Below, one piece after another: positions 3,455-64,000 of a DNA stretch of 64,000 bases. This DNA comes from Candidatus Geothermincolia bacterium. Its GTDB lineage: Bacteria > Actinomycetota > Geothermincolia > Fen-727 > Anoxymicrobiaceae. The DNA lies in contig JBBQKJ010000010.1 of assembly GCA_038326775.1 (NCBI GenBank), positions 7,236 through 71,235 on the forward strand, written 5' to 3'. The position numbers and the translations under genes were made by a program. Position 1 is the first letter of the stretch. Each line of letters starts with the position of its first letter. Under the pieces are notes generated by a model, which searched no databases, was not told where the DNA came from, and worked only from the letters and a program-made list of their open reading frames with translations.

Positions 3455-5185
3455 TTATTGCCCAATGCGGGATATTGGCATCCGCCAGTCGCGCCCGAAG
3501 GCGCGAGGGGTTATCTTCACGCCCACCGGTGCCTGGCGCCTCTTGAACTCGTTGGCGTCGACCCTGCCTATCACCGATTGAACAAGTTCAGCCGGCGAAC
3601 CGCGCCTGACAATCTCACGCGGGCTCAGCGCCTCCTCGATGTAAGCCTCGAGCACCGGGTCCAGCTCTTCGTACGGCGGGAGGCTGTCGGTATCCAGCTG
3701 CCCCTCGCGAAGCTCAGCGGTCGGGGGCCGCTCTATCACGTGGCGGGGGATCACGTCTCGCCTTTCCCTGGAGTTTATGTACTCCGCGACCTCATATACC
3801 TGCGTCTTGAGCAGATCCTTGATAAGGGCGAAGCCCCCGGCCATATCCCCGTACAGCGTGCAATAGCCCATACTTAGCTCGCTCTTGTTGCCCGTCGCCA
3901 GCACGAGCCAGCCGAACCGGTTGGAGAAAGCCATCAACAGGTTACCCCTGACGCGGGCCTGGATGTTCTCGAACGTCTCACCTTCCTCGGCATTTCCCAC
4001 CTCATCTCTGAGAGTCTCGCGATATGCCGCGTATATGTCACCGATAGGTACGGAGAGGAGCTTCACCTCGAGGTTTCGGGCTAGTTCGCGCGCGGCCTCA
4101 GCGCTCTCACCTGATGTGTACTTCGAGGGCAGGAAAACACAGACTACGTTGTCGCTCCCGAGCGCTCCCACCGCCAGCGCCGCGGTCAGAGCCGAGTCGA
4201 TGCCCCCTGAGAGCCCCAGCACGACCTTGCGAAAACCGTTTTTGGCCACGTACTCCCGCAGGCCCAGCACGATAGCCTCGTATATTTCCTCGACAGGTGA
4301 CAGACCCCGGGGGCTCTCGGGCGCGGTTACCTCAGGCGGGCCGTCTACATTCGCTTCAGGGCGCTCGAGCGCACACACATCGATGACACGTGGGCGCTCT
4401 TTAGAGCCGTACCGGAACCGCGGCTCGAGCATCCTGGCACCCTTGAGTCCGCCCAGACTGATGCCGCAGAGCAGGAGATCCTCACTGAACCTGGGGGCCT
4501 CCGCGATGAACCCGAGCTGCGGGTGGTACACACATGAGCCTCCGTCGAAGACCAGCTCATCCTGAGCCCCGACGGTGTTTACGTAAGCAATGACGACGGG
4601 CCCGTCCATCGAGCGCGCTTCAATGAGCTTTTTGCGAAAGCCGAACTTGCCGCGGTTGAAGGGCGAGGCGGAGAGGTTGAGCACTATCTCGGCGCCGCCG
4701 CCCGCCACCTGCTCCTCCATGGGTCCTCCAGGGTACCAGATGTCCTCGCATATCGTTATGCCTACCCTGACTCCCGCGACGTCAAGGACAACGCTGCCCC
4801 TGCCCACGCCGAAGTACCTCTTTTCGTCGAAGACCCCGTAATTGGGCAGAAGTGCCTTGCGGTAAACGCACTGTATCTTATGGCGATTAATGACCGCCGC
4901 CGAGTTGAAAGTGTCATAGTCGCTCTCCACGAAGCCTACTACCGCGATTATGTCTTCGATTTGCTTCGCGAGCCCTCTCATTGCCGTCATGCTGCCCTCG
5001 GTGAACTCCGGTTTCAGCAGCAGGTCCTCCGGCGGATAGCCTGTGAGGCACAGTTCAGGAAACACGACTATGTCCGCGCCGGCCCTTGCCGCCCGTGCGG
5101 AATACTCGAGGATCTTCCTGGTGTTACTCTCAAGGTCACCAACGGCCGTGTTTACCTGCGCCAAGGCAATCAGAAGCTCGGTCAT
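3455..5185 (-). CDS. nadE: Glutamine-dependent NAD+ synthetase (N-terminal CN-hydrolase/nitrilase domain + NAD synthetase domain)
   Basis: MTELLIALAQVNTAVGDLESNTRKI...IVVFPELCLTGYPPEDL (nitrilase-type glutaminase) ... LGLSGGIDSAL (PP-loop SGGxDS); 576 aa. Confidence 0.9.
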   Translation of the reverse strand: MTELLIALAQVNTAVGDLESNTRKILEYSARAARAGADIVVFPELCLTGYPPEDLLLKPEFTEGSMTAMRGLAKQIEDIIAVVGFVESDYDTFNSAAVINRHKIQCVYRKALLPNYGVFDEKRYFGVGRGSVVLDVAGVRVGITICEDIWYPGGPMEEQVAGGGAEIVLNLSASPFNRGKFGFRKKLIEARSMDGPVVIAYVNTVGAQDELVFDGGSCVYHPQLGFIAEAPRFSEDLLLCGISLGGLKGARMLEPRFRYGSKERPRVIDVCALERPEANVDGPPEVTAPESPRGLSPVEEIYEAIVLGLREYVAKNGFRKVVLGLSGGIDSALTAALAVGALGSDNVVCVFLPSKYTSGESAEAARELARNLEVKLLSVPIGDIYAAYRETLRDEVGNAEEGETFENIQARVRGNLLMAFSNRFGWLVLATGNKSELSMGYCTLYGDMAGGFALIKDLLKTQVYEVAEYINSRERRDVIPRHVIERPPTAELREGQLDTDSLPPYEELDPVLEAYIEEALSPREIVRRGSPAELVQSVIGRVDANEFKRRQAPVGVKITPRAFGRDWRMPISRIGQ

Positions 5186-47666: not shown

Positions 47667-48662
47667 TCAGGTAGGTATGAAATCGACGTCTCGGACCGTC
47701 ACCAGGCTGAGGGCGCCCGTCGGGCAGACGACCTGGCAGAGCCCGCATCCCATGCATTGCTCCGCGTCCACGGCGGCCACCCCCGTTTCATCGTCCATGG
47801 CGAGCGCCCCGAAGTAACAGCGCTCTAGGCATTCCCCACACGCGTCGCAAAGCTCGGCATCCACGATCGCGGCGTACCTGCTCGGGTCACACAGCTTCAG
47901 ACGGCGCTCGATAAGCATGGGGAAGGTGATGCAGCAGTCGTTGCAGCAGTTGCAGATGAAGTGGAACCCGCTGGTCCTGTTCATCGTGACGTGTATCAGG
48001 CCGGCCTCCTCGGCCTGCCTCAATAACCTGAGCGCCTCTTCCTTGTCTATCTCGCGGCCGCTCCCCCGGTCTATGGTGTACTCCCCCGCTTTGCCCACCT
48101 GGAGGCATATCTCAACCGGCCGGTCGCACTTGCGGGCGGTCAGTCGGCAGGTGCAGTTGACCACCGCTATCGGTGATTCGTTCTCGATGATCTCGCGTAC
48201 GTCTTCAAACGCCAGAATCTGCTGGCGGGCGTCCACCGACTCGCTGACGGGCACCACGCGGGCGACAGGCTTGGGCAGGAGCTTATCCACTATCTCCGAG
48301 AAAGCCGGCCACTCCGTCTCCATGTACTCCTGCCAGAGGTCGAGGTACTCACGGGGCGCCTCCGGCCAGAGTATCGAGGCGTCGTGGAACTGCATAAAAT
48401 CGCGGCACATCCGAAATTCCGTGCCTTCTGGCCGGGCTTTCTTAAAGACCAACCCCTTGTGAAAAAGCTCCTCCATCATGACCCGTACGGAATCTTCGTC
48501 ACGGCCGAGCTTCCCGGCGGCCTGCGCGACGGTACCGGGCAGCGCCAGGAGGAGGTCCGCCTCGTCGGGAGGAGCGATCATCTCGAAAAGCCGCGGCATG
48601 ATCAGCGAGCTCCCCATCATTATCTTTTCCGCCAGTGTCTGATACCGCTCGTCGTTTCCCAT
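47667..48662 (-). CDS. Fe-S protein: unknown N-domain, Cys-rich middle (CTCRLTARKC...C, CNCCNDCC) and C-terminal 2x[4Fe-4S] ferredoxin
   Basis: ...CDACGECLERC... and ...CMGCGLCQVVCP... give the ferredoxin motifs; total 17 Cys. Confidence 0.6.
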   Translation of the reverse strand: MGNDERYQTLAEKIMMGSSLIMPRLFEMIAPPDEADLLLALPGTVAQAAGKLGRDEDSVRVMMEELFHKGLVFKKARPEGTEFRMCRDFMQFHDASILWPEAPREYLDLWQEYMETEWPAFSEIVDKLLPKPVARVVPVSESVDARQQILAFEDVREIIENESPIAVVNCTCRLTARKCDRPVEICLQVGKAGEYTIDRGSGREIDKEEALRLLRQAEEAGLIHVTMNRTSGFHFICNCCNDCCITFPMLIERRLKLCDPSRYAAIVDAELCDACGECLERCYFGALAMDDETGVAAVDAEQCMGCGLCQVVCPTGALSLVTVRDVDFIPT

Positions 48663-53730: not shown

Positions 53731-55593
53731 TTGTACAATAACTTGAAGCTGGAGGCCTTTAGCGGTCGGCGCGGGTGGCGGACAGGAGAGCGACTTTTGA
53801 GCAACAGGCGAAAGAAAGTTATTATCTACGCACTTGTCGTGCTCATCTTCACTCTCATGACCCTCTTCTACACACGCCCGCTAGCGCTCAAGGCTGACGA
53901 CCATACCATGCGTGAGAACTGGGGCGACACCCTCTTCAACATCTACGTTATCAACTGGACAGCCCACTCGCTCAAGACAAACCCTCTCGGTCTCTTCAAC
54001 GCCACCATGTTCTACCCGAACCGCTACACGCTCGCATACTCGGACCACGAGTTTATGAGCGCCCTCATCGCCCTGCCCGTGCTTGCCCTGACCCATAACG
54101 GCGTGCTTGGTTTCAACTTCGTTATCATGATGAGCTTTATTATCGGCGCGCTTGGCGCCTTCCTGCTCGTCGAGCACCTGACCGGCGACAGGCTGGCCGC
54201 CTTCGCGGGCGGGGTGATATTCGGCTTCTCCCTTTACAGGCTCGCCCACATAACACATATGCAGCTGCTGTCCACGGGGTTCCTGCCGCTGGCCTTCCTC
54301 TGTCTCCACCTTTTCACGGAGAGAAAGAAGCCCCTCTACGCCTTCTTGTTCAGCATCTTTTCAATCGCGCTCTTCTTGACGGTCTGGAGCTACGGCTTCT
54401 TCCTGGCATTCGCCGTGCTCGTATACCTTGCCGTCCTCGTGGTGCTGGAACGCACGAAAGTCTACGCCTTCATCAGGGGAAAGGCCGGTGCCCTCGAGCG
54501 GAGAGCGGCTTTCCGATGGGCGGCGTTCCTGTTGGCTTCGTTCGTGTTGATCGGGGCGGTTCTGGCGCCGTTCATCCTCCCCTACCTGAAAGCGCGCAAG
54601 CTCAACCCTGGCTTCCAGCGGGACATCTCGGAGATCTACAGCTACTCAGGCGATGTGGCCGACTTCCTGGTGGCCCCGAAGCAGAGCCTGTTCTGGGGGG
54701 CGGCCACCGGCGTTCTGCGCCCCGAGCCTTACCCTCGCGGCAACGGCTCCGAGAGGTCGCTCTTCACCGGTCTGCTCCCTTACCTGCTCGCCATCGCGGG
54801 CGTCGTCTATCTTCACGGGATGGGCCGTTCAAAGCGTTTCATACTGTGGTTCTACGTGGTCCTGCTCCTGCTTGCGGCCCTGATGTGCCTTGGTGTCACC
54901 TTCTACGCGTTCGGTCGCCACGGGGGCATCTGGATGCCATACCGCCTCCTCTACCACTTCTTTCCGGGCTTCAAGGCCATCCGCACGCCCACGCGGATGT
55001 TCGTCCTGGTGCTGCTGTCGCTCTCGGTGCTTGGCGGGTTCGGGGTAAAGTGGCTGCGCCAGAGGCTGGAGGGCCGCCTCGACAAACTCGCGGTGGTCTT
55101 CCTCATGGTGGCGCTCCTTGTCCTGATGTTCGCGGAGGTCATGCCCACCGGCATCGAGATGAAGAGGATCGAGACCAGGGACGAGTTCCCGGCTGTCTAT
55201 AGCTGGCTGGCCACCCGCCGGGGAGACGCACCCACCGTGGTATTCCCGCTGGCGCCTTACGACGCCGAGGCTCCCTCCGGTATAAACGAACCGGCCTTTG
55301 TAGGCATGGAACCTCATCGCATCTACCACAACACCGCCAACTGGAAGAAGCTCCTCAACGGTTACTCCGGCTACATCCCCGTTTCCTACAAGGACGCCGT
55401 GAAATACACGCGCGACTTCCCTTCCCCCGGCGCCCTTTCCTTCCTGCGCGGCTTGAAGATAAAGTATGTCCTGCTGGAAAGCCAGTGGTACGAGCCCGCG
55501 GTGCTGAAGGTCATCCTGCAGCGGGCAATGCGCGATCGCAGGCTGTCGCTCGAGTACGAGGCCAGCGGTTATTACGCGTTCCGATTGAGGTGA
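53731..55593 (+). CDS. Large polytopic membrane protein (about 13 TM), possible GT-C-type glycosyltransferase or YfhO-like; function unknown
   Basis: 620 aa; repeated hydrophobic helices, first loop ...FYPNRYTLAYSDHEFMSAL..., large C-terminal soluble domain. The start is uncertain; an internal TTG is possible. Confidence 0.5.
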   Translation: MYNNLKLEAFSGRRGWRTGERLLSNRRKKVIIYALVVLIFTLMTLFYTRPLALKADDHTMRENWGDTLFNIYVINWTAHSLKTNPLGLFNATMFYPNRYTLAYSDHEFMSALIALPVLALTHNGVLGFNFVIMMSFIIGALGAFLLVEHLTGDRLAAFAGGVIFGFSLYRLAHITHMQLLSTGFLPLAFLCLHLFTERKKPLYAFLFSIFSIALFLTVWSYGFFLAFAVLVYLAVLVVLERTKVYAFIRGKAGALERRAAFRWAAFLLASFVLIGAVLAPFILPYLKARKLNPGFQRDISEIYSYSGDVADFLVAPKQSLFWGAATGVLRPEPYPRGNGSERSLFTGLLPYLLAIAGVVYLHGMGRSKRFILWFYVVLLLLAALMCLGVTFYAFGRHGGIWMPYRLLYHFFPGFKAIRTPTRMFVLVLLSLSVLGGFGVKWLRQRLEGRLDKLAVVFLMVALLVLMFAEVMPTGIEMKRIETRDEFPAVYSWLATRRGDAPTVVFPLAPYDAEAPSGINEPAFVGMEPHRIYHNTANWKKLLNGYSGYIPVSYKDAVKYTRDFPSPGALSFLRGLKIKYVLLESQWYEPAVLKVILQRAMRDRRLSLEYEASGYYAFRLR

Positions 55594-55720
55594 GGGCCCG
55601 GCGCGCGGGCCATAGCGCATTGCGCGATAGACGGTACGCTCCGACAGGAAGTCGCTTCCTGCTGTAGAAGCAATGGGCTGAGGAGACATGCAGAACTCAT
55701 TGAAGAGAAGGGAGGCCAGG

Positions 55721-56065
55721 ATGAGCCAGGCACTGGAGCGTTTCAAGCAGGCCCCCGGTGCGATGAAGCATTTCTTCGCGGACCGGCTTTCCCGGGCGCG
55801 CACCTCCGAGCCCGAAAACCTCGGGAAAGGTGAGGGCGCCCTGGTCCAGGCCAGCTCCGGGAAGGTCGCGGTCTATCGTGACGAGGAGGGCAAGCTCCAC
55901 GCCATGTCCCCGGTCTGCACTCACCTGAGGTGCATCGTCGACTGGAACGCAGCCGAAAAGACCTGGGACTGCCCCTGCCACGGCTCTCGTTACGACCCCT
56001 ACGGGCACGTGACTAGCGGCCCGGCCAGGAAGAACCTGGCACACGAAGACCTCGAAGCCGACTAA
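55721..56065 (+). CDS. Rieske [2Fe-2S] domain protein
   Basis: ...CTHLRC...(x17)...CPCHGSRY is the CxH...CxxH Rieske motif. AGGGAGG RBS. Confidence 0.8.
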   Translation: MSQALERFKQAPGAMKHFFADRLSRARTSEPENLGKGEGALVQASSGKVAVYRDEEGKLHAMSPVCTHLRCIVDWNAAEKTWDCPCHGSRYDPYGHVTSGPARKNLAHEDLEAD

Positions 56066-56155
56066 AAATTGGGGTCAGATCTGATTTCATCAGCCGGTCT
56101 TACTCGAGCCGTGTGACGGCCAACGACTGATGAAATCAGATCTGACCCCAATTTT
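56065..56155. repeat. Perfect 29-bp AT-rich inverted repeat (arms 56065-56093 and 56127-56155) with 33-nt spacer; candidate bidirectional terminator between the Rieske gene and the glycyl-radical enzyme gene
   Basis: AAAATTGGGGTCAGATCTGATTTCATCAG ... CTGATGAAATCAGATCTGACCCCAATTTT. Both strands end in CCCCAAUUUU(U). The two arms touch the stop codons of the two convergent genes exactly. Confidence 0.55.
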
Positions 56156-59121
56156 TACACACCGTACTCGGCGCGCTCGATCAGCTCTGTCTGCATGTCG
56201 CGGTTCAGGGTGACGAAGTAAGCGTTGTAGCCGGATATGCGGACCAGGAGGTTGCGGTAGTACTCGGGGTGCGCCATCGCGTCGCGGAGCATATCGCTCG
56301 TAACCACGTTCATCTGCATCTGCATCCCGCCCAGGTCGAAGTACGTCTTTGCGTAGGAGTACATGTTCCGGACGACCTGCTCGTGCGTGTCATCCGCGCC
56401 CGGCACCACCTTGACGTTGAACGCCATGTTGTTGTTCATGCTGTGCGGGTCGAGCCTTGCCACGTCCCTGATGTTATCGAGGAGGTTCCTGCTCGCGTTG
56501 GGCTCGGGGGTGAGGCCCGGCGTGAACGCCCTGGTGGCCAGGCGCCCCGAGGGCAAGGCCCCCGTGAGGGTGCCGAACGCCACGTGGTTCGACATGGTCC
56601 AGAAGCCGGTCGTGTAGGGCCCTCCGCGGTAGTTGCGGTGCGCCAGGTAGGTATCGTGGGCGAACCTGGCGACCCTGTTGGCCATGTCGACTGCCTCGTC
56701 GCTCCCGGAGCCGAAGAACGGGACCTTACTGCTTGCCATGGCCCGCAGTGCGGGGTCGCTCTCGAAGTTCGAGTCGACGGCCTCTTTCAACTGCGCGAAA
56801 GTGACCACGCGGTCGTCGTAGACGAGCTTCTTTATGACCATCAGGGAATCGGTGACGTCCGCGAGCCCGATGCATGCCGCCCCGCTGGTGTTGTGGCGGG
56901 CCCCGCCCTTCGTGACGTCCCTTCCCTTCTTGATGGAGTCACTGATGAGCGCAGACAGCAGCGGCGTGGGGCGTATGTAGGCGTGGGCCTCTCCCATCAT
57001 GTTGTTGTACTCCACCGACGCGTCGATAAGGAACTCGAACTGGGTGGTGAAAGCGCCGTAGAAGTCCTCGAACGTCGGGAAGTCTCCCGCCTCGATGCGG
57101 CCTGTCTTCGGCCCGACGTCCCAGTTCATGAGCGGGTGCTTCCCGTTGTTCATCGCCATCTCCAGGGCGGCCACCATGTTCATCATCTGGAAGTTGGTGT
57201 GCCCCATGTGCCTGCCCCAGATAGTCGGCTCGACGCAGCCGACGGCTGCCCAGTCGCGCAGCTCCTCGGGCGGATAGTCGAACTCCTTCAGAGATTCCAT
57301 CACGGCGACATCGTTGTGCATGGAGGGTGTGGCCGCCGTTATTAGGTTGACCTCGCAGAGCCGCTTGAGATAAGTCTCGGAGTTCTTCTCGGGGTTATAC
57401 TTCGCGTTCATATTGGGGTCGCGGATGTTGAGCAGTTCCGTGACCTTCAGGAATATATAGGTCATGTCGTTGACCGCATCTTCGCCCAGTGGGGTCACGC
57501 CACCGAGGGTTATCGCCTGGTCGGACGAGCTGCCGCCGAATAGGTAGTTAGCCACGTCGGGGAACAGGGGAAGGTGGTCGGTGCACTTCATGAAGAAGCA
57601 GCCAACCAGCTCGATCGCTCTCCTGATATACACCTCCCGCTCCTCGGGGGTGGAAAGCTCCGCCATGCCGTCCTCGAAAAAGGGCTGGAACAGCTGGTCG
57701 AGGCGGCCCAGGGACAGCCCGGCGTTGGTATTCTCCATGTGCAGGCCCACGAACGTTATCCAGACCGCGTTGAGCGCTTCGTCGAGCGTTTCGCAGGGGT
57801 TCTCCGGGACTTTCGCGCACGTCCGCGCCAGGCTCTCCAGCTCGGCCACCCTGTCAGGATCGCTTTCGCGAGCAGCCTCGAGCCGGGCCTGCCTGCCCAG
57901 GTTGGCCGCGTAGGCGTTGACGCCCTGCAGACAGAGCTTCATCGCCTCCAGGGAGTCCTTCTTCTCCTGCGGCGGGCCCGCGCTCAGCTCGTCGTCTATC
58001 TCGGCGATGATGCCTGACGTCCCGAGCCGGAGCAGCTTGGGGAAGTCCGCTATGGTGTGCGAGAACGCGCTGGTCTTGAACATGAATATCACGGCAAAGC
58101 GCTCGTCGAGCCTCTGGCCCAGGGGATAGTCGTGTTTCACCCGCACCCACTCGCGCACGTTCCTCCTGGCCCAGAACGGGAAAACGTGATGGTGGAGGAC
58201 CTCGGCTGTCTCCTCAGATATCTCGTAGCTGTTGAGCATCCTGAACGGCGATGATCCCAGCTCCCCCCAGAACAGCGTCCCCGCCGCGTCCGGATAGCCG
58301 AGCACCCCTATCTCCATTGAGGTGGTCGTGCCCGCTATGAGGTCGTTTTTCCTTATGATGGGAACTCGGTTCTCCATCATGTGTTTATATGCCCGCGCCT
58401 GCCTGAGCTCGGGCACGTGGGGGTTTCCCTCACGATCGGTCTCGAAGCCGTTCTCGACGAACCAGTCGGTCATGAGCCTGGCGCGCTCACAGCAGACCTC
58501 CGGCTTGACCGTGAAGTGGATGTCCAGGAATCTCTTCAGTCTGGGGAAATCCTCGAGGGAGTATCCGGAGAGGTACGGCTCGGGCAGGTGCAAGACACCG
58601 GGGTCGACGCTTTCGGCCTTCATCCGGTCAAGTCGCCTGTTCTTCATCTCATCCCTGAGAGCCGGGTCCGCGGGAGGCGCCTGCCTAAGCCTCAGGGCGG
58701 TGTCCTCCACCTTCTGTTTGTCCATCATCCGGCGGTGAATCGGGCCGGCGATGAGCGAGATATAGAAGTTCAAGAGGGTCAAGTAGGTGAAGTTGCCTTC
58801 GGCGCGAACCTTGTTCTTGAGCAGGAGGTTAAAGACCTCGCTGGGCGGGAGCCTGACCATCTCCTTGAGGACCTCTTCGGCGGTGAACACCAGGCTGACG
58901 TCGCAGTCTTCGGGTATCTTCCTGGCGACCCTGACATGGCCGCCCTTGAATATCATGGCCTCCTCGACGCCGCGGTCCTCGGTGCGGAACCCAACGGAGA
59001 AGTCAATCCAGGATCCGTTGCCGCGCAGGTACCCATTGAGGCGCTTGCGATGGTTGAAGTTCGCCGCTATCAACCTCAGGGCGGCGTTAGCGACGTGATC
59101 CGTTAGAGTTCTGCCACTCAT
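56155..59121 (-). CDS. Glycyl radical enzyme, Cys-Val-Glu (eliminase/dehydratase-type) active site, with about 190-aa N-terminal SCP2-like extension (paralog A)
   Basis: C-terminal glycyl-radical motif ...LLVRISGYNAYFVTL... Thiyl loop ...WAAVGCVEPT... N-terminal region ...DCDVSLVFTAEEVLKEMVRLPPSEVFNLLLKNKVRAEGNFTYLTLLNFY... resembles the SCP2 sterol-carrier fold. 988 aa. Confidence 0.88.
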   Translation of the reverse strand: MSGRTLTDHVANAALRLIAANFNHRKRLNGYLRGNGSWIDFSVGFRTEDRGVEEAMIFKGGHVRVARKIPEDCDVSLVFTAEEVLKEMVRLPPSEVFNLLLKNKVRAEGNFTYLTLLNFYISLIAGPIHRRMMDKQKVEDTALRLRQAPPADPALRDEMKNRRLDRMKAESVDPGVLHLPEPYLSGYSLEDFPRLKRFLDIHFTVKPEVCCERARLMTDWFVENGFETDREGNPHVPELRQARAYKHMMENRVPIIRKNDLIAGTTTSMEIGVLGYPDAAGTLFWGELGSSPFRMLNSYEISEETAEVLHHHVFPFWARRNVREWVRVKHDYPLGQRLDERFAVIFMFKTSAFSHTIADFPKLLRLGTSGIIAEIDDELSAGPPQEKKDSLEAMKLCLQGVNAYAANLGRQARLEAARESDPDRVAELESLARTCAKVPENPCETLDEALNAVWITFVGLHMENTNAGLSLGRLDQLFQPFFEDGMAELSTPEEREVYIRRAIELVGCFFMKCTDHLPLFPDVANYLFGGSSSDQAITLGGVTPLGEDAVNDMTYIFLKVTELLNIRDPNMNAKYNPEKNSETYLKRLCEVNLITAATPSMHNDVAVMESLKEFDYPPEELRDWAAVGCVEPTIWGRHMGHTNFQMMNMVAALEMAMNNGKHPLMNWDVGPKTGRIEAGDFPTFEDFYGAFTTQFEFLIDASVEYNNMMGEAHAYIRPTPLLSALISDSIKKGRDVTKGGARHNTSGAACIGLADVTDSLMVIKKLVYDDRVVTFAQLKEAVDSNFESDPALRAMASSKVPFFGSGSDEAVDMANRVARFAHDTYLAHRNYRGGPYTTGFWTMSNHVAFGTLTGALPSGRLATRAFTPGLTPEPNASRNLLDNIRDVARLDPHSMNNNMAFNVKVVPGADDTHEQVVRNMYSYAKTYFDLGGMQMQMNVVTSDMLRDAMAHPEYYRNLLVRISGYNAYFVTLNRDMQTELIERAEYGV

Positions 59122-59173
59122 CACCCCTCACTCTCATGGCTACGGTTTACTGCCGGCATCGCGACGCTTCAGT

Positions 59174-62146
59174 CTATATACGGTATTCCGCGCGCTCGAT
59201 CAGCTCGATCTGCATCTCACGGTAAAGGGTCACGAAGTAAGCGTTATACCCGGAGATACGGACCAGAAGGTTGCGGTAGCTCTCGGGGTGCGCCATGGCG
59301 TCACGTAGCATCCGGCTCGTGACCACGTTCATCTGCATCTGCATGCCGCCCAGGTCGAAGTACGTCTTCGCGTAGGAGTACATGTTCTCGACGACCTGCT
59401 CGTGCGTGTCGCCGTCCCCCGGCACGACCTTGACGTTGAACGCGATGTTGTTGTTCATGCTGTGCGGGTCGAGCCTTGCCACGTCCCTTATGTTATCGAG
59501 GAGGTTCTTGCTCGCGTTGGGCTCCGGGGTGAGCCCCGGCGTGAACGCCTTGCCGGCCAGCTTGCCGGACGGAAGCGCCCCGGAAAGCATCCCGAAAGCT
59601 ACGTGGTTCGACATCGACCAGAATCCCGATGTGTAAGGACCGCCCCGGAAGTTCAGGTGCGCTCCGTAGGTATCGTGCGCGAACTTCGCCACACGGGAAG
59701 CCATCTCGACGGCCTCGTCGCTCCCGGAGCCGAAGAACGGTACCTTCCTGGTTACCATGGCGTGGAGCGCCGGGTCGTTTTCGAAGTTAGTGTCGACCGC
59801 CCTCTTCAGGTCGGCCAGGCCGATCACCTTCTCGTCGTAGACCAGCTTCTTTATCACCATGAGCGAGTCGGTCACGTCAGCGAGGCCTATGCATGCGGCG
59901 CCGGACGAGTTGTACCGGGCTCCGCCCACCGTCACGTCCTTCCCCTTCTCGATCGAGTCGCTTATGAGGGAGGAGAGCAGCGGGGTCGGCCTGATGACGC
60001 TGTGGGCCTCACCGAGCATGTTGTTGTACTCGACGGAGTTGTCTATGAGGAAAGCGAATTGCGTGGTGAAGGCGTTGTAGAAGTCCTCGAAGCCAGCGAA
60101 ACTGCCCGCTTCGATGCTGCCGGTCTTCGGCCCGACGTCCCAGTTCATGAGCGGGTGCTTCCCGTTGTTCATCGCCATCTCGAGCGCGGCGACCATGTTC
60201 ATCATCATGCAGTTGGTGTGGCCCAGGTGCTTTCCGGACAGCGTCGGCTCGACGCAGCCGACGGCTGCCCAGTCGCGCAGGTCCTCTTCGAGATAGTTGA
60301 ACTCCTTCAGAGACTCCATCACCGCCAGGTCGTTGTGCATTGAGGGGGTGGCAGCCGTTATGAGGTTGACCTCGCAGAGGCGCTTCAGGTACGTGTCTGA
60401 GTTCTTCTCGGGGTTAAAGCGCGCGTTGACGTTGGGGTCGCGTATGTTCAGCATCTCCGTGACCTTCAGGAAGACATAGGTCATGTCGTTGACCGCGTCC
60501 TCACCATCGGAGGTCACCCCGCCAAGGGTTATCGCCTGGTCTGAGGAGCTGCCGCCGAAAAGGTAGTTCCCGATGTCGGGGGCCAGCGGCAGGTGGTCGG
60601 TGCACCTCATGTAGAAGCAGCCAACCAGCTCGACGGCCTTCCTGACGTATTCCTCGCGCTCACCGGGCGTATCGAGCTTCGCCATGTCGGCCTCGAAGTA
60701 GGGCTGCAGCCACTGGTCCATGCGGCCGAGCGACAGCCCCATGTTGGAGTTCTCCATGTGGAGTGCCACCCACCCGATCCAGCAGGCGTTCACCGCCTCG
60801 TCCAGCGTCTCGCAGGGGTTCTCCGGCACGCGCGCGCAAATCTCGGTCATGCGCTCGAGCTCCGCGGCGCGCGCCGGGTCTTTTTCCAGGTCGGCTTCGC
60901 GAGCCGCCTGCCGCGAGAGGTTGCCCGCGTACGAGTTGACGCCCTCGAGGCAAAGCTTCATCGCCGCGAGCGTATCCTTCTTCTCCCGGCTCGCGTCCTC
61001 GTCCGAGGCCAGTTCATCCTCGATGTCCTTGATAATCCCGGAGGTGCCCAGTCGCATAAGCTTCGGGAAATCGGCGATAGTGTGCGAGAGAGCCGCCGTC
61101 TTCCACATGAAATAGACCGCGAAGCGCTCATCGAGCTTCTGGCTCAACGGAGCATGGTAGTTGTCCCGCACCCACTCGCGCATGTTCCTCCTGGTCCAAT
61201 ACGGAAAGACGTAATGGTGGAGCGTTTTCGCGGTCTCCTCGGAAACCTCGTAAGGGTTCAGCAGCCTCTCCGGCAGGGAGCCGAGCTCGTTCCATACCAT
61301 GGTGCCGGCCGTGTCAGGGTATACCACTACCCCTATCTCCCTGGTCGTGGTCGTCCCTGCGACAAGGTCGTCACCGCGGATGATGGGCTTCTTTTTCTCC
61401 ATGAGGTGCTTGAACGCGTGAGCCTGCCGCAGCACCGGCACCCAGGGCTTGCCCTCCATGTCGGTCTCGAAGCCGTTCTCCACGAACCAGTCCGTGAGCA
61501 ACCTGGGTCGCTCCGCGCATACCTCCGGCTTCTTAGTGAAGTGGATGTCGACGAAGCGCTCGAGCCTGGGGAAGTCGCCGATGTCGTACCTCGAAAGGTA
61601 CGGTTCCTCCAGGTGCTTGACCCCGGGGTCGCTCTTCTCGCCTGCCATCCTCTGCTTCCTGCGCCCGGACATCTCATTGCGGATGGCGGGGTCGACCTCC
61701 GGGGCCTCCTCCAGGCGCTCCGCGGCGTCACGGGCCTTGATCTTCGCGTTTCGCTTGCTGTTCTGCTTTGCCATAAGGACGGAGATGTAGTAGTTCATGA
61801 GCGTCATGTAGGAGAGGTTACCCTCGAGCCTGAACTTGCTTTTTAAGAGCATGTTCAATATCTCGTTGGGCGTGGCCTTCAGCATGTCCATGACCACGCC
61901 GTCGTCGGCCAGGATCATCGTCACGTCGGCATCGTCAGGGATTCTCCCCATCACCTTGACCTTGCCGTCCCTGAACCTGATGGCCTGCACGACCGTGTTG
62001 TTCTCGGTGCGGATCCCGACAGTGAAATCTATCCAGGCGCCGTTGCTCCTCATGTAATCCCTGACCGTAGGCCTGAGGTTGAAGCTGGCCGACATCAGCC
62101 GCAGTACCGATCCTCCAACGAGGTTGGTAATGGACTTACCGCTCAT
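59174..62146 (-). CDS. Glycyl radical enzyme, paralog B of 56155-59121 (same architecture)
   Basis: 990 aa; ...VRISGYNAYFVTL...; ...WAAVGCVEPT...; N-terminal ...DADVTMILADDGVVMDMLKATPNEILNMLLKSKFRLEGNLSYMTLMNYY... By eye it is about 75-80% identical to paralog A in the core and about 50% in the N-terminal extension. AGGAGGAG RBS. Confidence 0.88.
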   Translation of the reverse strand: MSGKSITNLVGGSVLRLMSASFNLRPTVRDYMRSNGAWIDFTVGIRTENNTVVQAIRFRDGKVKVMGRIPDDADVTMILADDGVVMDMLKATPNEILNMLLKSKFRLEGNLSYMTLMNYYISVLMAKQNSKRNAKIKARDAAERLEEAPEVDPAIRNEMSGRRKQRMAGEKSDPGVKHLEEPYLSRYDIGDFPRLERFVDIHFTKKPEVCAERPRLLTDWFVENGFETDMEGKPWVPVLRQAHAFKHLMEKKKPIIRGDDLVAGTTTTREIGVVVYPDTAGTMVWNELGSLPERLLNPYEVSEETAKTLHHYVFPYWTRRNMREWVRDNYHAPLSQKLDERFAVYFMWKTAALSHTIADFPKLMRLGTSGIIKDIEDELASDEDASREKKDTLAAMKLCLEGVNSYAGNLSRQAAREADLEKDPARAAELERMTEICARVPENPCETLDEAVNACWIGWVALHMENSNMGLSLGRMDQWLQPYFEADMAKLDTPGEREEYVRKAVELVGCFYMRCTDHLPLAPDIGNYLFGGSSSDQAITLGGVTSDGEDAVNDMTYVFLKVTEMLNIRDPNVNARFNPEKNSDTYLKRLCEVNLITAATPSMHNDLAVMESLKEFNYLEEDLRDWAAVGCVEPTLSGKHLGHTNCMMMNMVAALEMAMNNGKHPLMNWDVGPKTGSIEAGSFAGFEDFYNAFTTQFAFLIDNSVEYNNMLGEAHSVIRPTPLLSSLISDSIEKGKDVTVGGARYNSSGAACIGLADVTDSLMVIKKLVYDEKVIGLADLKRAVDTNFENDPALHAMVTRKVPFFGSGSDEAVEMASRVAKFAHDTYGAHLNFRGGPYTSGFWSMSNHVAFGMLSGALPSGKLAGKAFTPGLTPEPNASKNLLDNIRDVARLDPHSMNNNIAFNVKVVPGDGDTHEQVVENMYSYAKTYFDLGGMQMQMNVVTSRMLRDAMAHPESYRNLLVRISGYNAYFVTLYREMQIELIERAEYRI

Positions 62147-62356
62147 CGCACTCCTCCTGGTAACCGAACCACACGAAAATATCTTTGATAGCAGTACCGC
62201 CTGGAGTCAATGATATTACTCAAGCGACCCTTTGCGCCAGCAAATCTTACGTGCGATCGCCGGCAGAAGCCTTGCGCAATGAAGCTCGCGAGTCATATGC
62301 TTTCCCTGGCCGACCCGGCCGCCTGAAGCGGCCCCGTGAAACCAGTGGGAGGACTG

Positions 62357-63328
62357 ATGGCGCTTGACATCGACCTGGAGCTGCTCCAGGAGTTCGAAAA
62401 GTACCTCGACCCGCGCAAACCCGAGCAGAGCAGGGTGCCCGCCAAAGTCCTCGGATACGGAGAGATCAGCACCGTCTTCGAGATAGGCGACGAGCGGCAG
62501 AGGGACCTCGCTTACAAGCGGATGCCGATATTTGCCGCGGAGGGCGAGATCGAGCAGTACGAGCGGACCTTCAACGAGTACTGCCGTGTCCTTACCGAGG
62601 ATGTCGGCCTGGTGCTTCCTCCTTACGGGTGCGCGAGCCTGCCACCGGAAGCGGGAAGGCCCGTGATGTTCCTCGCCCAGAGGAAGCTTCTGCCCGAGTC
62701 CATCGGAAACAGGGCGATACACGTGATCTCCCGGGACGACACCGTCCGGCTGGTCAGGCACCTTCTCCGCGAGCTGAAGAAAGTCTGGGAGTACAACGCC
62801 CGCGGCCGAAGCGTCGAGCTCGGTATAGACGGCCAGATATCGAACTGGTCGATCGAGGGGTTCGACCCGGGAAACCCCGGCCTCGGAGAAGAGGCCAGGC
62901 TCATCTATTTCGACACCAGCACGCCTTTCCTTCGGATCGACGGCGTCGAGCAGCTCGAACCGGAGCTCTTCCTGCGCAGCGCCCCGTCATTCCTGGTGTG
63001 GCTGCTCAGGAAGCTCTTCCTCGAGGACGTCATGACCCGCTACTACGACTTCCACCTTGTTACGGTCGACCTGATAGGGAACTTCTACAAGGAGCAGCTG
63101 CCGGAGTACATCCCCGAACTGATCGACACGGCTAACTGTTTCTTCGCGGACGAGGCGGGCGGCCTCGAAATCGCCCCGATAACCGAGAAAGAGGTGCGCT
63201 CTTACTACCGGGAGGACGCCATAATCTGGTCGTCCTACCTCTCCGCTCGAAGGATCGACCGGTTCCTGCGTACCCGGCTGTTGCGCAAGGACTACCCCTA
63301 CATTCTGCCTGGAAAAATAAAGCGTTAG
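62357..63328 (+). CDS. Hypothetical protein with protein-kinase-like/APH-like motifs
   Basis: Gly-rich VLGYGEISTVFEI; possible beta3 Lys (LAYKRMP); catalytic-loop-like GIDGQISNWSI (D-x4-N); downstream IYFDTS (DFG-position Asp). GGGAGG RBS before the ATG at 62357. Confidence 0.45.
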   Translation: MALDIDLELLQEFEKYLDPRKPEQSRVPAKVLGYGEISTVFEIGDERQRDLAYKRMPIFAAEGEIEQYERTFNEYCRVLTEDVGLVLPPYGCASLPPEAGRPVMFLAQRKLLPESIGNRAIHVISRDDTVRLVRHLLRELKKVWEYNARGRSVELGIDGQISNWSIEGFDPGNPGLGEEARLIYFDTSTPFLRIDGVEQLEPELFLRSAPSFLVWLLRKLFLEDVMTRYYDFHLVTVDLIGNFYKEQLPEYIPELIDTANCFFADEAGGLEIAPITEKEVRSYYREDAIIWSSYLSARRIDRFLRTRLLRKDYPYILPGKIKR

Positions 63329-63338
63329 GAGGCTGGAG

Positions 63339-64000
63339 ATGAGCGTCATCGGCCAGGAATCCAAAGAGAAGATAACCGAGCTGTTCGCCCGGCATGTCTC
63401 AAGCGGCAAGGTCGAGTTCTTCAAAAACGCGGGTATGGACTTCATCCTCGGAAGGCGCGAGGGCGTCTACATGTACGACCTGGACGGCAACCAGTACATA
63501 AACTGCAACTGCAACGGCGGGGTCTTCAACCTCGGCCACCGCAACCCCGAGGTCGTCGCGGCCCTCCAGGAGGCGCTCAAAGAGCTCGACATCGGGACCC
63601 ACCACACCGTCAGCGAGCAGCGCGCGCTGCTGGGTGAGAGGCTTGCCTCGATATGCCCCGGTGATATCAACCGCGTCATCTACGGTGTCAGCGGAGGCGA
63701 GGTGGTCGACACGGCCATCAAGCTGGCGCGCGGGCACACCGGCAGGCCCGGGGTCGTTTCCGCCATCGGGGGCTACCACGGCCACACCGGGTTCGCTCTG
63801 CCCGCCGGCCACGAGCAGTACTCCAGGCCGTTTGAACCCCTCGTCCCGGGCTATACACAGGTGCCGTTCGGCGACACGGACGCACTCGACGCGGCTGTCG
63901 ACAAAAACACCGCGTGCGTGCTCTTCGAGACCATACCGGCGACGCTGGGAATACTCCTCCCTCCAGAGGGCTTCTACGCGCGCGTCCGCGGGATATGTGA
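63339..64000 (+). CDS. Class-III (omega) PLP-dependent aminotransferase family protein; 3' end truncated by window edge
   Basis: MSVIGQESKEKITELFARHVSSGKVEFF...GVYMYDLDGNQYINCNCNGGVFNLGHRNPEVVAALQEAL...VSGGEVVDTAIKLARGHTGRPGVVSAIGGYHGHTGFAL... AGGAGG RBS. Not in the ORF track because no stop lies within the window. Confidence 0.85.
   Translation, partial: MSVIGQESKEKITELFARHVSSGKVEFFKNAGMDFILGRREGVYMYDLDGNQYINCNCNGGVFNLGHRNPEVVAALQEALKELDIGTHHTVSEQRALLGERLASICPGDINRVIYGVSGGEVVDTAIKLARGHTGRPGVVSAIGGYHGHTGFALPAGHEQYSRPFEPLVPGYTQVPFGDTDALDAAVDKNTACVLFETIPATLGILLPPEGFYARVRGIC

Follow-up and report, generated by a model that had tools for sequence, protein, structure and literature searches.

Glycyl-radical enzymes (GREs) are oxygen-sensitive, and each newly characterized one has exposed an unexpected anaerobic pathway, be it for choline (to TMA), hydroxyproline, isethionate or anhydro-sugars. 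The GRE 1,2-eliminases, represented by B12-independent glycerol dehydratase (GDH; 1r8w), 1,2-propanediol dehydratase (5i2g/9rco), HypD (6vxc), CutC (5fau) and IslA (7kq3), possess a ten-stranded barrel, a C-terminal glycyl-radical domain and a Cys-x-Glu (CXE) loop, the motif that defines GRE eliminases and isomerases; the roles of this motif and of its His partner are documented (PMC7077986, PMC13450708). Long-form CutC (9f3w, 1150 aa) is an eliminase with a large N-terminal extension. Hydrophobic substrates have been linked (PMC8163825) to A. fulgidus PFL2/PflD (2f3o), a 776-residue protein with a single-Cys CXE-type loop, and are used by the X-succinate synthases (BSS, 4pkf; MASS, 9o8u), multi-subunit GREs that catalyze fumarate addition and whose beta subunits gate the hydrophobic substrate channel (PMC13450708).

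The proteins described here, which we call SCP2-GREs, share the barrel, the glycyl-radical domain and the CXE loop with the 1,2-eliminases, and in their relatives, too, the GRE is partnered by an activase that carries additional ferredoxin-like clusters. What they add is a stretch of ~195 N-terminal residues, a predicted SCP2 domain plus linker, that is absent from every characterized eliminase. To our knowledge, an SCP2 domain attached to a radical enzyme has never been reported.

The tandem genes and their family

The window, by which we mean the whole 64-kb stretch of DNA analyzed, carries two adjacent GRE genes on its minus strand. GRE-A (59174..62146; 990 aa) encodes a predicted SCP2-fold domain, a linker, a PFL-like barrel and a glycyl-radical domain and represents the family consensus (A) type; GRE-B (56155..59121; 988 aa from its ATG) has the same architecture and is of a derived (B) type. 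The GRE-B ORF as listed begins one codon further upstream, with a GTG at 59124 (989 aa); the ATG at 59121 is most likely the true start, because the exact 988-aa sequence is recorded from the same 73,288-bp NCBI contig and this start agrees with the orthologs. Since no inverted repeat, and so no hairpin, was found in the 49-bp spacer between the genes (59125..59173), they are probably co-transcribed.

A sequence-only reading of this DNA had reported two ORFs of about 990 aa with RISGYNAYF and GCVEP motifs and a particular N-terminal sequence pattern. All of these are present where it placed them, both motifs in both proteins, and Pfam agrees: the PFL-like profile (PF02901) is fully covered by residues ~203–852 (E 1.6e-160 and 2.6e-170, the latter for GRE-A), and Gly_radical (PF01228) scores 80–81 bits against a cutoff of 22 (E ~1e-22; in GRE-A residues 868–972, E 2.3e-22). 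In GRE-A, the Cys loop G-C631-V-E633-P (60245..60259, minus strand) aligns with C433 and E435 of C. butyricum GDH, and Gly966 (59249..59251, minus strand), the predicted glycyl-radical site, lies in R-I-S-G-Y-N-A-Y-F within the Gly_radical match. The loop and R963-I-S-G966-Y are invariant among 46 family members, with the latter invariance extending over R963–F971.

Divergent from the GREs are genes with Pfam matches to DUF6206 (62336–63328, plus strand) and a class-III aminotransferase (plus strand, from 63321, cut by the window end at 64000), a pair that the actinobacterial clade retains on the upstream side of the GRE (L001, L009, L012, L017, L018, L025 and L030). On the other side, a Rieske [2Fe-2S] gene (55688..56065, plus strand; Pfam) is convergent with them.

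GRE-A has at least 120 full-length relatives with 64% identity or more. All 80 kept GTDB loci cover residues ~1–990 at 60–83% identity across many phyla, with at least 80 species representatives in Actinomycetota, Chloroflexota, Desulfobacterales, Syntrophales, Spirochaetota and one Asgard archaeon. Among the best 150 of 326 matches in 1.8 billion representatives, the N-domain is N-terminal, and the full-length matches all have ~984–1041 aa. These proteins are annotated solely as "formate acetyltransferase" or "pyruvate formate lyase", labels under which the family stays concealed because its SCP2 domain falls below HMM thresholds. Judged by these alignments, the fusion is a trait of a widespread, uncharacterized family and not peculiar to this locus.

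GRE-A is 100% identical to P0006 and 83–86% identical to its syntenic orthologs, and the orthologs of GRE-B share 95% (P0056), 82% (P0060) and 80% (P0063) identity with it. The two paralogs are 72% identical overall, with 78% in the core (residues 196–990), 43% in residues 1–130 and 55% in residues 131–195, close to the earlier estimates of about 75–80% for the core and about 50% for the N-domain. The N-domain thus evolves faster than the core, and its dN/dS between A and B is also higher. The presumed great age of the pair is borne out by the tree, in which the B clade and the entire actinobacterial A clade are sister groups, and by a dS of about 0.9 between the paralogs. Comparisons with orthologs gave dN/dS values of 0.11–0.12 for GRE-A and 0.12–0.15 for GRE-B, indicative of purifying selection on both (about 0.13). 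Seventeen substitutions in GRE-B are specific to its clade, among them L636I and S637W beside the Cys loop as well as C646F and M647Q. As far as the alignment can tell, GRE-A retains the family-consensus pocket, and the fixed changes by the Cys loop suggest a related yet different substrate for GRE-B.

Catalytic core and N-terminal domain

The best structural and sequence matches of the SCP2-GREs are the 1,2-eliminases, with 27–30% identity, E-values of 1e-98 to 1e-107 and TM-scores normalized to target of ~0.90; Foldseek gave 0.90–0.92 against GDH, PD and PFL2. Also shared is the His that partners the Glu (H355, equivalent to GDH H164 and HypD H160). By its motifs, the core belongs to the CXE eliminase/isomerase class, in keeping with the eliminase-type branch proposed beforehand, and it lies closest to the diol/glycerol dehydratases, HypD and CutC. 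Neither protein reaches an NCBIfam equivalog or subfamily cutoff: GRE-A and GRE-B score 478–494 bits against 678 for TIGR01774 (the PFL2/glycerol dehydratase subfamily), 390–406 against 1100 for HypD and 353–376 against 1050 for CutC, and both are below the HpsG/HpfG cutoff.

The family conserves a distinctive active-site signature consisting of H355, A/M469-G470, F-G-G-S-S-S-D-Q (530–537), C631-V-E633, H640, H643-T-N645, W843 and N847-H848. GDH H164, H281, S282, Y339, D447 and Y640, which we take to be the substrate-binding residues, were equated with family positions by hand counting on the HMMER alignment, with conservation read from the family alignment; only H164 is kept (as H355). H281/S282 correspond to A/M469-G470, Y339 to D536, D447 to N645 and Y640 to W843, and the A/M-G pair, D536 and N645 are invariant or nearly so. 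The CutC positions D216, F395, T502 and Y506 are not conserved either. PFL2/PflD, which the family matches in sequence more closely than any other solved structure (E 4e-115), differs in lacking the N-terminal domain, is only ~30% identical and has Q-A at 469–470, N at 536 and D at 645. As judged from these residues, the pocket is unlike that of any characterized CXE-class member.

In the predicted structure, residues ~1–125 of GRE-A (61772..62146, minus strand) have the secondary-structure order alpha-alpha-beta4-alpha-alpha-beta-alpha and form a five-stranded sheet packed on helices, the topology of SCP2. According to the model, the N-terminal domain of GRE-A and GRE-B therefore has an SCP2 fold. 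The SCP2-like segment recognized in the sequence-only reading is upheld at the level of the predicted fold, although not by profile thresholds: Pfam SCP2 (PF02036) scored 12.3 bits (E 0.22) against a gathering cutoff of 21.3, in GRE-A only, and the family profile matched PDB SCP2 sequences at a sub-threshold E of 0.07. The SCP2 domains of the alkyl/aryl-sulfatase YjcS/SdsA1 (4pdx), human SCP2 and the MFE-2 SCP2-like domain (8af2, 2c0l), UbiJ (6h6n) and A. fulgidus AF1534 (3bn8) are 9–15% identical to it. Unlike in these enzyme-fused or pathway-associated cases, the GRE family's domain sits at the N-terminus, ahead of a helical linker specific to the family.

In GRE-A, this linker (residues ~126–195; 61562..61771, minus strand) comprises two long helices and then the conserved stretch D173-P-G-V-K-x-L-x-x-P-Y-L-S..D-F-P-R-L, with near-invariant columns at D173, G175, V176, L179, P182, Y183, L184, D191, F192, P193 and R194. 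Residues 171–200 have a pLDDT of ~55 when the domain is predicted in isolation and of ~90 when the whole protein is modeled (pTM 0.88), and the conserved segment seems to pack against the catalytic core. The earlier remark that characterized GREs have no such fusion agrees with what we find: residues 1–190 are covered by no solved GRE, and the June 2026 review of the superfamily mentions neither SCP2 nor sterol nor an SCP2-GRE fusion family (PMC13450708). The extension of long-form CutC does not have an SCP2 fold, and its weak internal matches to query residues 194–280 and 394–517 fall in the GRE helical region.

Substrate and chemistry

The reading that we favor, with somewhat better than even confidence, is that GRE-A and GRE-B belong, as tandem paralogs of long standing, to a widespread subfamily in which a CXE core, permanently fused to an SCP2-fold lipid-binding domain, would turn an amphipathic substrate into a carbonyl product. 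A radical-SAM activase would install the radical on Gly966, from which it would be relayed to Cys631. Cys631 would take an H atom from the hydroxyl-bearing carbon at the polar end of the substrate and Glu633, tuned by His355, would deprotonate the hydroxyl, after which a neighboring leaving group would be eliminated, or the substrate isomerized, to give an aldehyde or ketone. The SCP2 domain may capture the hydrophobic tail and feed the substrate into the channel or hold it there; alkylsulfatases, the peroxisomal multifunctional enzyme MFE-2 and UbiJ offer examples of SCP2 domains in such a role. An aldehyde product could then be reduced, or oxidized and activated to a CoA ester.

The genomic context in relatives is in line with these last steps. 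In other lineages, the operon is tetR-GRE-activase, and across lineages a TetR gene precedes the GRE in the same orientation at 31 of 35 loci. Around the family operons lie genes for 3beta-HSD-like or SDR reductases (downstream, same strand), aldehyde:ferredoxin oxidoreductase (AFOR; divergent, upstream) and AMP-binding proteins (acyl-CoA synthetase; nearby), most of these associations being found in just 12–16 of 80 loci and partly inside related lineages; the actinobacterial clade has a different context, with DUF6206, aminotransferase and Rieske genes. The aldehyde/ketone reductases, AFOR and acyl-CoA synthetase fit an aldehyde that is reduced or oxidized and CoA-activated, and together with TetR these conserved neighbors suggest that an amphipathic substrate is turned into an aldehyde. 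We infer that the substrate is hydrophobic or lipid-like.

The fused domain could, however, have a task other than delivery, as a membrane tether, as a gate of the glycyl-radical domain or of activase access, or as a lipid sensor, with the core acting on a small polar metabolite. We regard this as unlikely, while noting that the characterized CXE-type GREs all use small polar molecules (PMC13450708). The residues near the radical site (H355, D536, H640, H643, N645, N847 and H848) are mostly polar and invariant, and such a pocket would suit a small polar substrate equally well if the SCP2 domain served another role; the faster divergence of the N-domain (43% versus 78% identity, higher A–B dN/dS) also speaks for it. 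At the other extreme, and in our estimation just as improbable, the family may perform a novel GRE chemistry in which a C–O (ether), C–N or similar bond next to a hydroxyl is cleaved in a lipid head group. The SCP2 domain would pull the lipid tail out of a membrane or micelle, the reaction would be an entry into anaerobic lipid catabolism, and the A, B and third-clade paralogs would each serve other head groups, with glyceryl ethers including archaeal-type lipids, long-chain diols or amino-alcohols, sphingoid bases and N-acylethanolamines as candidate substrates.

Very unlikely, in our view, is an X-succinate-synthase-like enzyme that activates alkanes or alkylaromatics by fumarate addition, with the SCP2 domain delivering the hydrocarbon. 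PflD-like GREs of sediment MAGs have reportedly been read as hydrocarbon-activating before. The MAGs that encode the family include some named as Desulfatibacillum, Desulfosudis oleivorans, Smithella and Syntrophales, groups that include hydrocarbon degraders, and the taxa overlap with those of X-succinate synthases; there is a domain for hydrophobic ligands, and genes for acyl-CoA synthetase and acyl-CoA dehydrogenase lie in the vicinity. The nearest solved structure, PFL2/PflD, is one for which Ass activity was proposed, and homologs of 29–33% identity have been called Ass/Bss (PMC8163825). Against this stand the similarities themselves: of the GRE structures listed, none is more remote than BSS and MasD (21–22% identity, rank 45 or lower), with sequence E-values of 1e-50 to 1e-60 compared to 1e-105 to 1e-115 for the eliminases, and the family keeps the eliminase/isomerase CXE motif. 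The known X-succinate synthases, moreover, have beta, gamma and delta subunits (PMC13450708), whereas beside the SCP2-GREs there are no conserved small ORFs, the gaps to tetR, activase or second GRE being 2–170 bp, and the extra element is the fused SCP2 domain. The association with aldehyde oxidoreductase and aldehyde reductase fits a carbonyl product instead. Weak similarity is thus poor ground for annotating such GREs as alkylsuccinate synthases.

The activase gene and the wider family

An activase of 304–329 aa with a CPLSCxWC motif and ferredoxin-like clusters adjoins the GRE in 61 of 68 informative family loci, and L007, L008 and L009 are tandem A-B-activase operons. The family at large thus has a cognate radical-SAM activase, and the window has none: open frames of 80 aa or more contain no CxxxCxxC motif anywhere in the 64 kb, and tblastn of the window with six family activases returned only generic ferredoxin-cluster matches. 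The sequence-only reading had found no activase within 6 kb on either side and considered this unusual for GRE loci. The family counts confirm that it is unusual and the absence extends to all 64 kb, but upstream of GRE-A the 6-kb statement cannot be read, because the window ends after 1.85 kb; nor do syntenic relatives point to an activase just outside, as none lies in the 10 kb upstream of their GREs.

The intergenic region from the GRE-B stop to the Rieske stop (56066..56154), about 90 bp, holds a perfect ~29-bp inverted repeat (AAAATTGGGGTCAGATCTGATTTCATCAG and its complement) with a 33-nt loop and A-tract and T-tract flanks. This hairpin, with a folding energy of -69 kcal/mol (z = -10.3), is unique in the window and matches no Rfam family; homologous hairpins occur directly 3' of GRE stop codons in L009 and L091. 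By blastn breakpoints against L001, the region is the slot of the activase gene in relatives, in which the 3' ends of the Rieske and activase genes abut. Because syntenic relatives hold the activase exactly at this slot, its absence is a derived loss, on the aligned loci a lineage-specific deletion from an operon in which the activase is normally the immediate neighbor. Either, then, an activase encoded elsewhere acts on the GREs in trans, or the two enzymes are inactive now.

That the locus is dead or dying, with both GREs on their way to pseudogenes for want of an activase, strikes us as quite unlikely. It would agree with the lack of any activase or remnant in 64 kb, with a gap lying exactly between the two stops, and with a protein collection that contains both GREs of the MAG but in which no activase from NCBI exceeds 71% identity to the one beside the 95%-identical GRE-B ortholog. 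Both ORFs are intact, however, with all catalytic motifs present, and the dN/dS of GRE-B against that ortholog is 0.13, equal to older comparisons. About 10% of family loci lack an adjacent activase, among them L010 of the same clade through an independent, different deletion, and the MAG may be incomplete. Activation of GREs in trans is known; E. coli PflA, for example, serves several GREs. An assembly artefact of this metagenome-assembled contig is scarcely credible: the L007, L090 and L091 contigs begin within a GRE and relatives' contigs break in or next to the paralog pair, so the region is hard to assemble, and the junction is a long perfect palindrome, but it is a clean succession of stop codon, native-type hairpin as after the GREs of L009 and L091, and stop codon, the flanks are colinear with relatives on both sides, L010 has its own deletion, and assemblers do not typically collapse a 1-kb unique gene.

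The SCP2-GREs make up a large, phylogenetically broad family whose catalytic core is, by the predicted structure, hard-wired to a lipid-carrier fold. The family operons in which the GRE is accompanied by its activase and by a TetR sensor offer a well-defined experimental target, and the TetR ligand could reveal the substrate. Anoxic breakdown of ether and other recalcitrant lipids in sediment, subsurface and digester communities is poorly understood. If our inference is right, SCP2-GREs would apply radical chemistry to amphipathic or lipid substrates in such communities and, should lipid head groups indeed be cleaved, would provide an O2-independent entry into lipid catabolism for sediment anaerobes, including Asgard archaea.

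A tandem gene pair with an SCP2-like N-terminal domain

GRE-A, an open reading frame of 990 aa, occupies positions 59174-62146 of the minus strand, and its paralog GRE-B is listed as an open frame at 56155-59124 of the same strand. GRE-B most likely starts at an ATG one codon within that frame, giving 988 aa, since an exact 988-aa protein from the same 73,288-bp NCBI contig is on record and the orthologs begin there. In both glycyl radical enzymes (GREs), Pfam recognizes a full-length PFL-like domain at residues ~203-852 (E values of 1e-160 and 1e-170), followed by a Gly_radical domain (E ~1e-22). Both also have the glycine motif R-I-S-G-Y-N-A-Y-F and, as cysteine loop, G-C-V-E-P, as the sequence-only reading had described. 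In each protein, ~195 residues precede the point where GRE homology begins. Identity between the paralogs is 72% over the full length and 78% in the core, but 43% over residues 1-130 and 55% over residues 131-195, which matches the earlier estimate of a well-conserved core and a more diverged N-terminal domain. A simple promoter and terminator scan returned nothing beyond shuffle expectation.

Structure prediction assigns the N-terminal extension to the SCP2 fold. By sequence methods alone, this assignment is only suggestive: the Pfam SCP2 match has an E value of 0.22 and occurs in one of the two paralogs only, and a 42-sequence family profile run against the whole PDB placed three SCP2 structures at the top, over the canonical region, but with E 0.07. 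Past this N-domain follow two long helices and then a near-invariant segment, D-P-G-V-K-x-L-x-D-P-Y-L-S...D-F-P-R-L. The pLDDT of this linker segment rises from ~55 in the isolated domain to ~90 in the full-length model, which argues that it packs on the core. The full-length model has a pLDDT of 83.8 and a pTM of 0.88, the latter being consistent with a docked SCP2 domain.

The impression that the N-domain is very rare rested on five fragment matches, reflecting the sensitivity limit of a word-indexed search, and was overturned by full-length, genome and profile searches. The full-length search returned at least 120 proteins of 973-1025 aa (64-100% identity, ~100% coverage), one of them from a Promethearchaeota metagenome-assembled genome (MAG). 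Among GTDB genomes, scanned at one per species, at least 574 related stretches turned up, and all 80 loci that were kept span residues ~1-990 at 60-83% identity. By the labels of the MAGs that hold them, these 80 loci come from Actinomycetota (Candidatus Anoxymicrobiaceae, Solincola), Chloroflexota, Desulfobacterales, Syntrophales/Smithella, Desulfomonilia, Spirochaetota/Leptospirales, SAR324, Myxococcota and Bacillota. When 1.8 billion representatives were searched exhaustively with a profile, 326 matches emerged; the best 150 of these have the N-domain at the N-terminus, the full-length ones all measure 984-1041 aa, and no other convincing N-domain architecture occurs among them.

Catalytic class, pocket and gene neighborhood

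Among solved structures, the 1,2-eliminases and PFL2 (PflD) of A. fulgidus lie closest to the core in sequence, with E values from 1e-98 to 1e-115. Foldseek superimposes it on these enzymes with a target-normalized TM-score of ~0.9 at 27-30% identity; the query-normalized score is just 0.73 because the N-domain is unmatched. Benzylsuccinate and methylalkylsuccinate synthases (BSS/MASS) are the most distant among the matches listed, with 21-22% identity at rank 45 or lower. The Cys-x-Glu (CXE) motif, C631-V-E633 in GRE-A, is invariant in the family alignment. Eliminases and the newer isomerases are defined by this motif, whose glutamate hydrogen-bonds or deprotonates a substrate hydroxyl (PMC7077986, PMC13450708). 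The invariant motif and the proximity to 1,2-eliminases bear out the earlier placement of both proteins in the eliminase-type branch rather than with PFL, and from these sequence features we infer eliminase chemistry.

Residue correspondences between GRE-A and B12-independent glycerol dehydratase (GDH) were counted by hand in the HMMER alignment. H355, which corresponds to H164 of GDH and H160 of HypD, is invariant. At the substrate-contact positions, GDH H281-S282 corresponds to A/M469-G470 in the SCP2-fused family, Y339 (the position of CutC F395) to D536 within F-G-G-S-S-S-D-Q, D447 to N645 (H643-T-N), and Y640 to W843 in W-[ST]-M-S-N-H-V. This set of replacements is family-specific and almost invariant, and neither GRE-A nor GRE-B reaches any NCBIfam equivalog or subfamily cutoff; the family is thus one of CXE-class GREs with its own pocket.

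Several neighbors recur among the 80 loci. A TetR regulator occurs in 35, upstream and on the same strand in 31 of them and across lineages, and an AMP-binding acyl-CoA synthetase is found nearby in 16. Mostly downstream and on the same strand are a 3beta-HSD/epimerase-type reductase (15 loci), with a further match to NAD_binding_4 of the fatty-acyl reductases, and a short-chain dehydrogenase (12 loci). An aldehyde:ferredoxin oxidoreductase is present in 12 loci, divergent and upstream in 11 of them, and some actinobacterial loci additionally encode MMPL/sterol-sensing transporters and MaoC hydratases. The neighborhood resembles the aldehyde-handling modules of diol dehydratases combined with genes of hydrophobic-acid metabolism, a pattern that provides circumstantial support for a carbonyl product formed from an amphipathic substrate.

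A lipid or amphipathic substrate would also be in keeping with the SCP2 fold. Alternatively, the SCP2 domain might act as a regulatory module or membrane tether while the substrate itself is small and polar, a reading with which the polar pocket agrees. Pairings of a kinase-like protein with a class-III aminotransferase are known as amino-alcohol kinase/phospho-lyase systems. In the window, genes for DUF6206 and a class-III aminotransferase (62336-64000, plus strand) overlap each other by 8 bp and are transcribed divergently from the GREs; all through the actinobacterial clade this pair is retained on the upstream side of the GRE. Were DUF6206 kinase-like, the pair might point to a substrate of the amino-alcohol type, with which the invariant Asp536 of the pocket would agree. 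These enzymes might also be fumarate-adding hydrocarbon activases, as PflD-like GREs have been labeled on weak similarity (PMC8163825). Four features oppose this reading: the CXE motif is present, BSS and MASS are distant, small-subunit genes are lacking, and the neighbors handle aldehydes.

Two further features of the surroundings deserve mention. A 620-aa multi-pass membrane protein (53731-55593, plus strand) has no Pfam match in the window scan, and its ortholog in the related locus L001 carries the precomputed label DUF6311; the protein belongs to the backbone that is conserved on the downstream side of the GRE locus. In two Chloroflexota loci (L022, 5912-9680; L045, 3503-7201), a second, unrelated GRE with its own activase adjoins the pair of SCP2-fused GRE and activase; this second GRE shares 28% identity and has no N-domain.

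Paralog history, activase loss and the hairpin behind the genes

GRE-B has orthologs at 95%, 82% and 80% identity and is not a private duplicate of the window's genome. On the contigs of these orthologs (L007, L008, L009), an A-type GRE is followed by a B-type GRE and an activase. In a neighbor-joining tree, the actinobacterial A clade as a whole forms the sister group of the B clade, and dS between GRE-A and GRE-B is about 0.9; the duplication is therefore old, as had been supposed. The B type carries 17 clade-fixed substitutions that are rare elsewhere, two of them (L636I and S637W) adjoining the Cys loop, and GRE-B also has C646F and M647Q, whereas GRE-A has the family consensus. In a third deep clade (L023, 1865-7978; L069, 3257-9395; L048), N645 is replaced by Gly, giving the pocket motif H-T-G-S-[IL]-L-M-N instead of H-T-N-C-M-M-M-N. 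In Syntrophaceae and Spirochaetota loci (L023, L069) its members form tandem pairs with a copy of the consensus type, so tandem paralogy has more than one origin. This repeated diversification of the pocket in tandem copies suggests that they act on related but distinct substrates. Metagenome contigs of several relatives end in or near a GRE gene of the operon (L007, 1-231; L090, 1-199; L091, 1-227). Sequence common to the GRE copies may break assemblies here, in which case short-read MAGs may show too few tandem copies.

The radical-SAM activase adjoins the GRE in 61 of 68 informative loci and is missing within the flanks in the other 7. It comprises 304-329 aa with C-P-L-S-C-x-W-C and ferredoxin-like clusters. 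Its gene follows the GRE in Actinomycetota, Syntrophales and Spirochaetota, but in Desulfobacterales it is found upstream. In the 64-kb window, CxxxCxxC is absent from every open frame of at least 80 aa, and tblastn with six family activases found only ferredoxin-type cluster motifs in unrelated genes. The earlier statement that no activase lies within 6 kb on either side stands for the window, but the window stops 1.85 kb upstream of GRE-A, so that the upstream side covers just that distance. A 331-aa protein in the window (47667-48662, minus strand) has a C-terminal 2x[4Fe-4S] ferredoxin domain and the Cys-rich stretches CTCRLTARKCD and FICNCCNDCC, and recurs within ~5-8 kb of the GRE in 10 loci labeled Actinomycetota, Spirochaetota and Desulfobacterales. 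As a substitute activase it was rejected, having neither the CxxxCxxC motif nor a radical-SAM domain; it could conceivably supply electrons to the activase or the GRE.

Six actinobacterial relatives share a backbone of class-III aminotransferase, DUF6206, GRE, activase, Rieske, PIG-L, DUF6311, MgtC, PfkB, Macro and the 331-aa Fe-S protein; some of them lack PIG-L or DUF6311. One relative, L091, has the window's exact variant (no PIG-L, but DUF1622 and an epimerase) with the activase between GRE and Rieske. Homology between the window and its relatives runs up to the GRE-B stop codon and picks up again in the Rieske gene; by this comparison, the absence of the activase is a derived loss. A related Candidatus Anoxymicrobiaceae MAG with a single GRE (L010) has independently lost the downstream activase, Rieske and PIG-L genes (at 4924-5161), which makes loss of the adjacent activase recurrent in the actinobacterial clade. 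The protein collection searched includes the GREs of the window's MAG, and among its NCBI-sourced activases none exceeds 71% identity to the one beside the 95% GRE-B ortholog; the cognate activase thus seems absent from the deposited MAG, which is possibly incomplete. The locus might be decaying, but dN/dS values of 0.11-0.15 for GRE-A and GRE-B indicate purifying selection in N-domain and core alike. Together with the intact reading frames, this selection argues for continued function of both enzymes, which are presumably activated by an activase encoded elsewhere. The clean, colinear junction and the independent deletion in L010 speak against an assembly artefact at the activase gap.

Between the GRE-B stop and the Rieske gene, about 90 bp (56066-56154) form one perfect inverted repeat whose arms of ~29 bp enclose a 33-nt loop. 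Hairpins with the same termini, GGGGTCAG...CTGACCCC, also occur 3' of the GRE stops in L009 (9568-9647 and 12647-12726, after A and B) and L091 (230-309), so the hairpin is native to this position and the activase behind it was lost. With the hairpin of L010 (4965-5066), these elements directly behind GRE stops are long and near-perfect (24-33-bp stems, 26-36-nt loops), and most share the termini. A cassette or hairpin-mediated excision was rejected because the inverted repeats do not bracket the activase in relatives and form a local hairpin directly 3' of the GRE stop in L009 and L091. The repeat is absent from L001, L012, L017, L018, L025 and L030; its arm has no other copy in the window and none in 89 loci, and Rfam returned only generic hairpin models far below threshold. 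The hairpins may act between cistrons, as terminators or as mRNA-stability elements, and thereby set the GRE-to-activase ratio, or they may represent a REP-like repeat. The called activase starts in L091 and L009 are probably too early, as the frames overlap the hairpin.

Standing and annotation of the family

The observation and main interpretation of the sequence-only reading hold overall, with the architecture and evolutionary history well supported. No solved GRE among the structures matched covers the N-terminal region, the June 2026 review of the GRE superfamily mentions neither SCP2 nor sterol nor an N-domain of this kind (PMC13450708), and targeted literature searches found nothing on an SCP2-fused GRE family, in agreement with the earlier remark that such a fusion is not known in characterized GREs. 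The fusion is the trait of a large family and not specific to this locus. The SCP2-fused GREs are best described as a widespread, unannotated subfamily of CXE-type GREs with its own pocket.

Source names of the full-length relatives read only 'formate acetyltransferase' or 'pyruvate formate lyase family', the labels that public records put on family members. In published MAG studies, PflD-like GREs were called alkyl/benzylsuccinate synthases at 29-33% identity (PMC8163825). Members of the SCP2-fused family are exposed to both mis-annotations, as PFL-type and as succinate-synthase-type enzymes.
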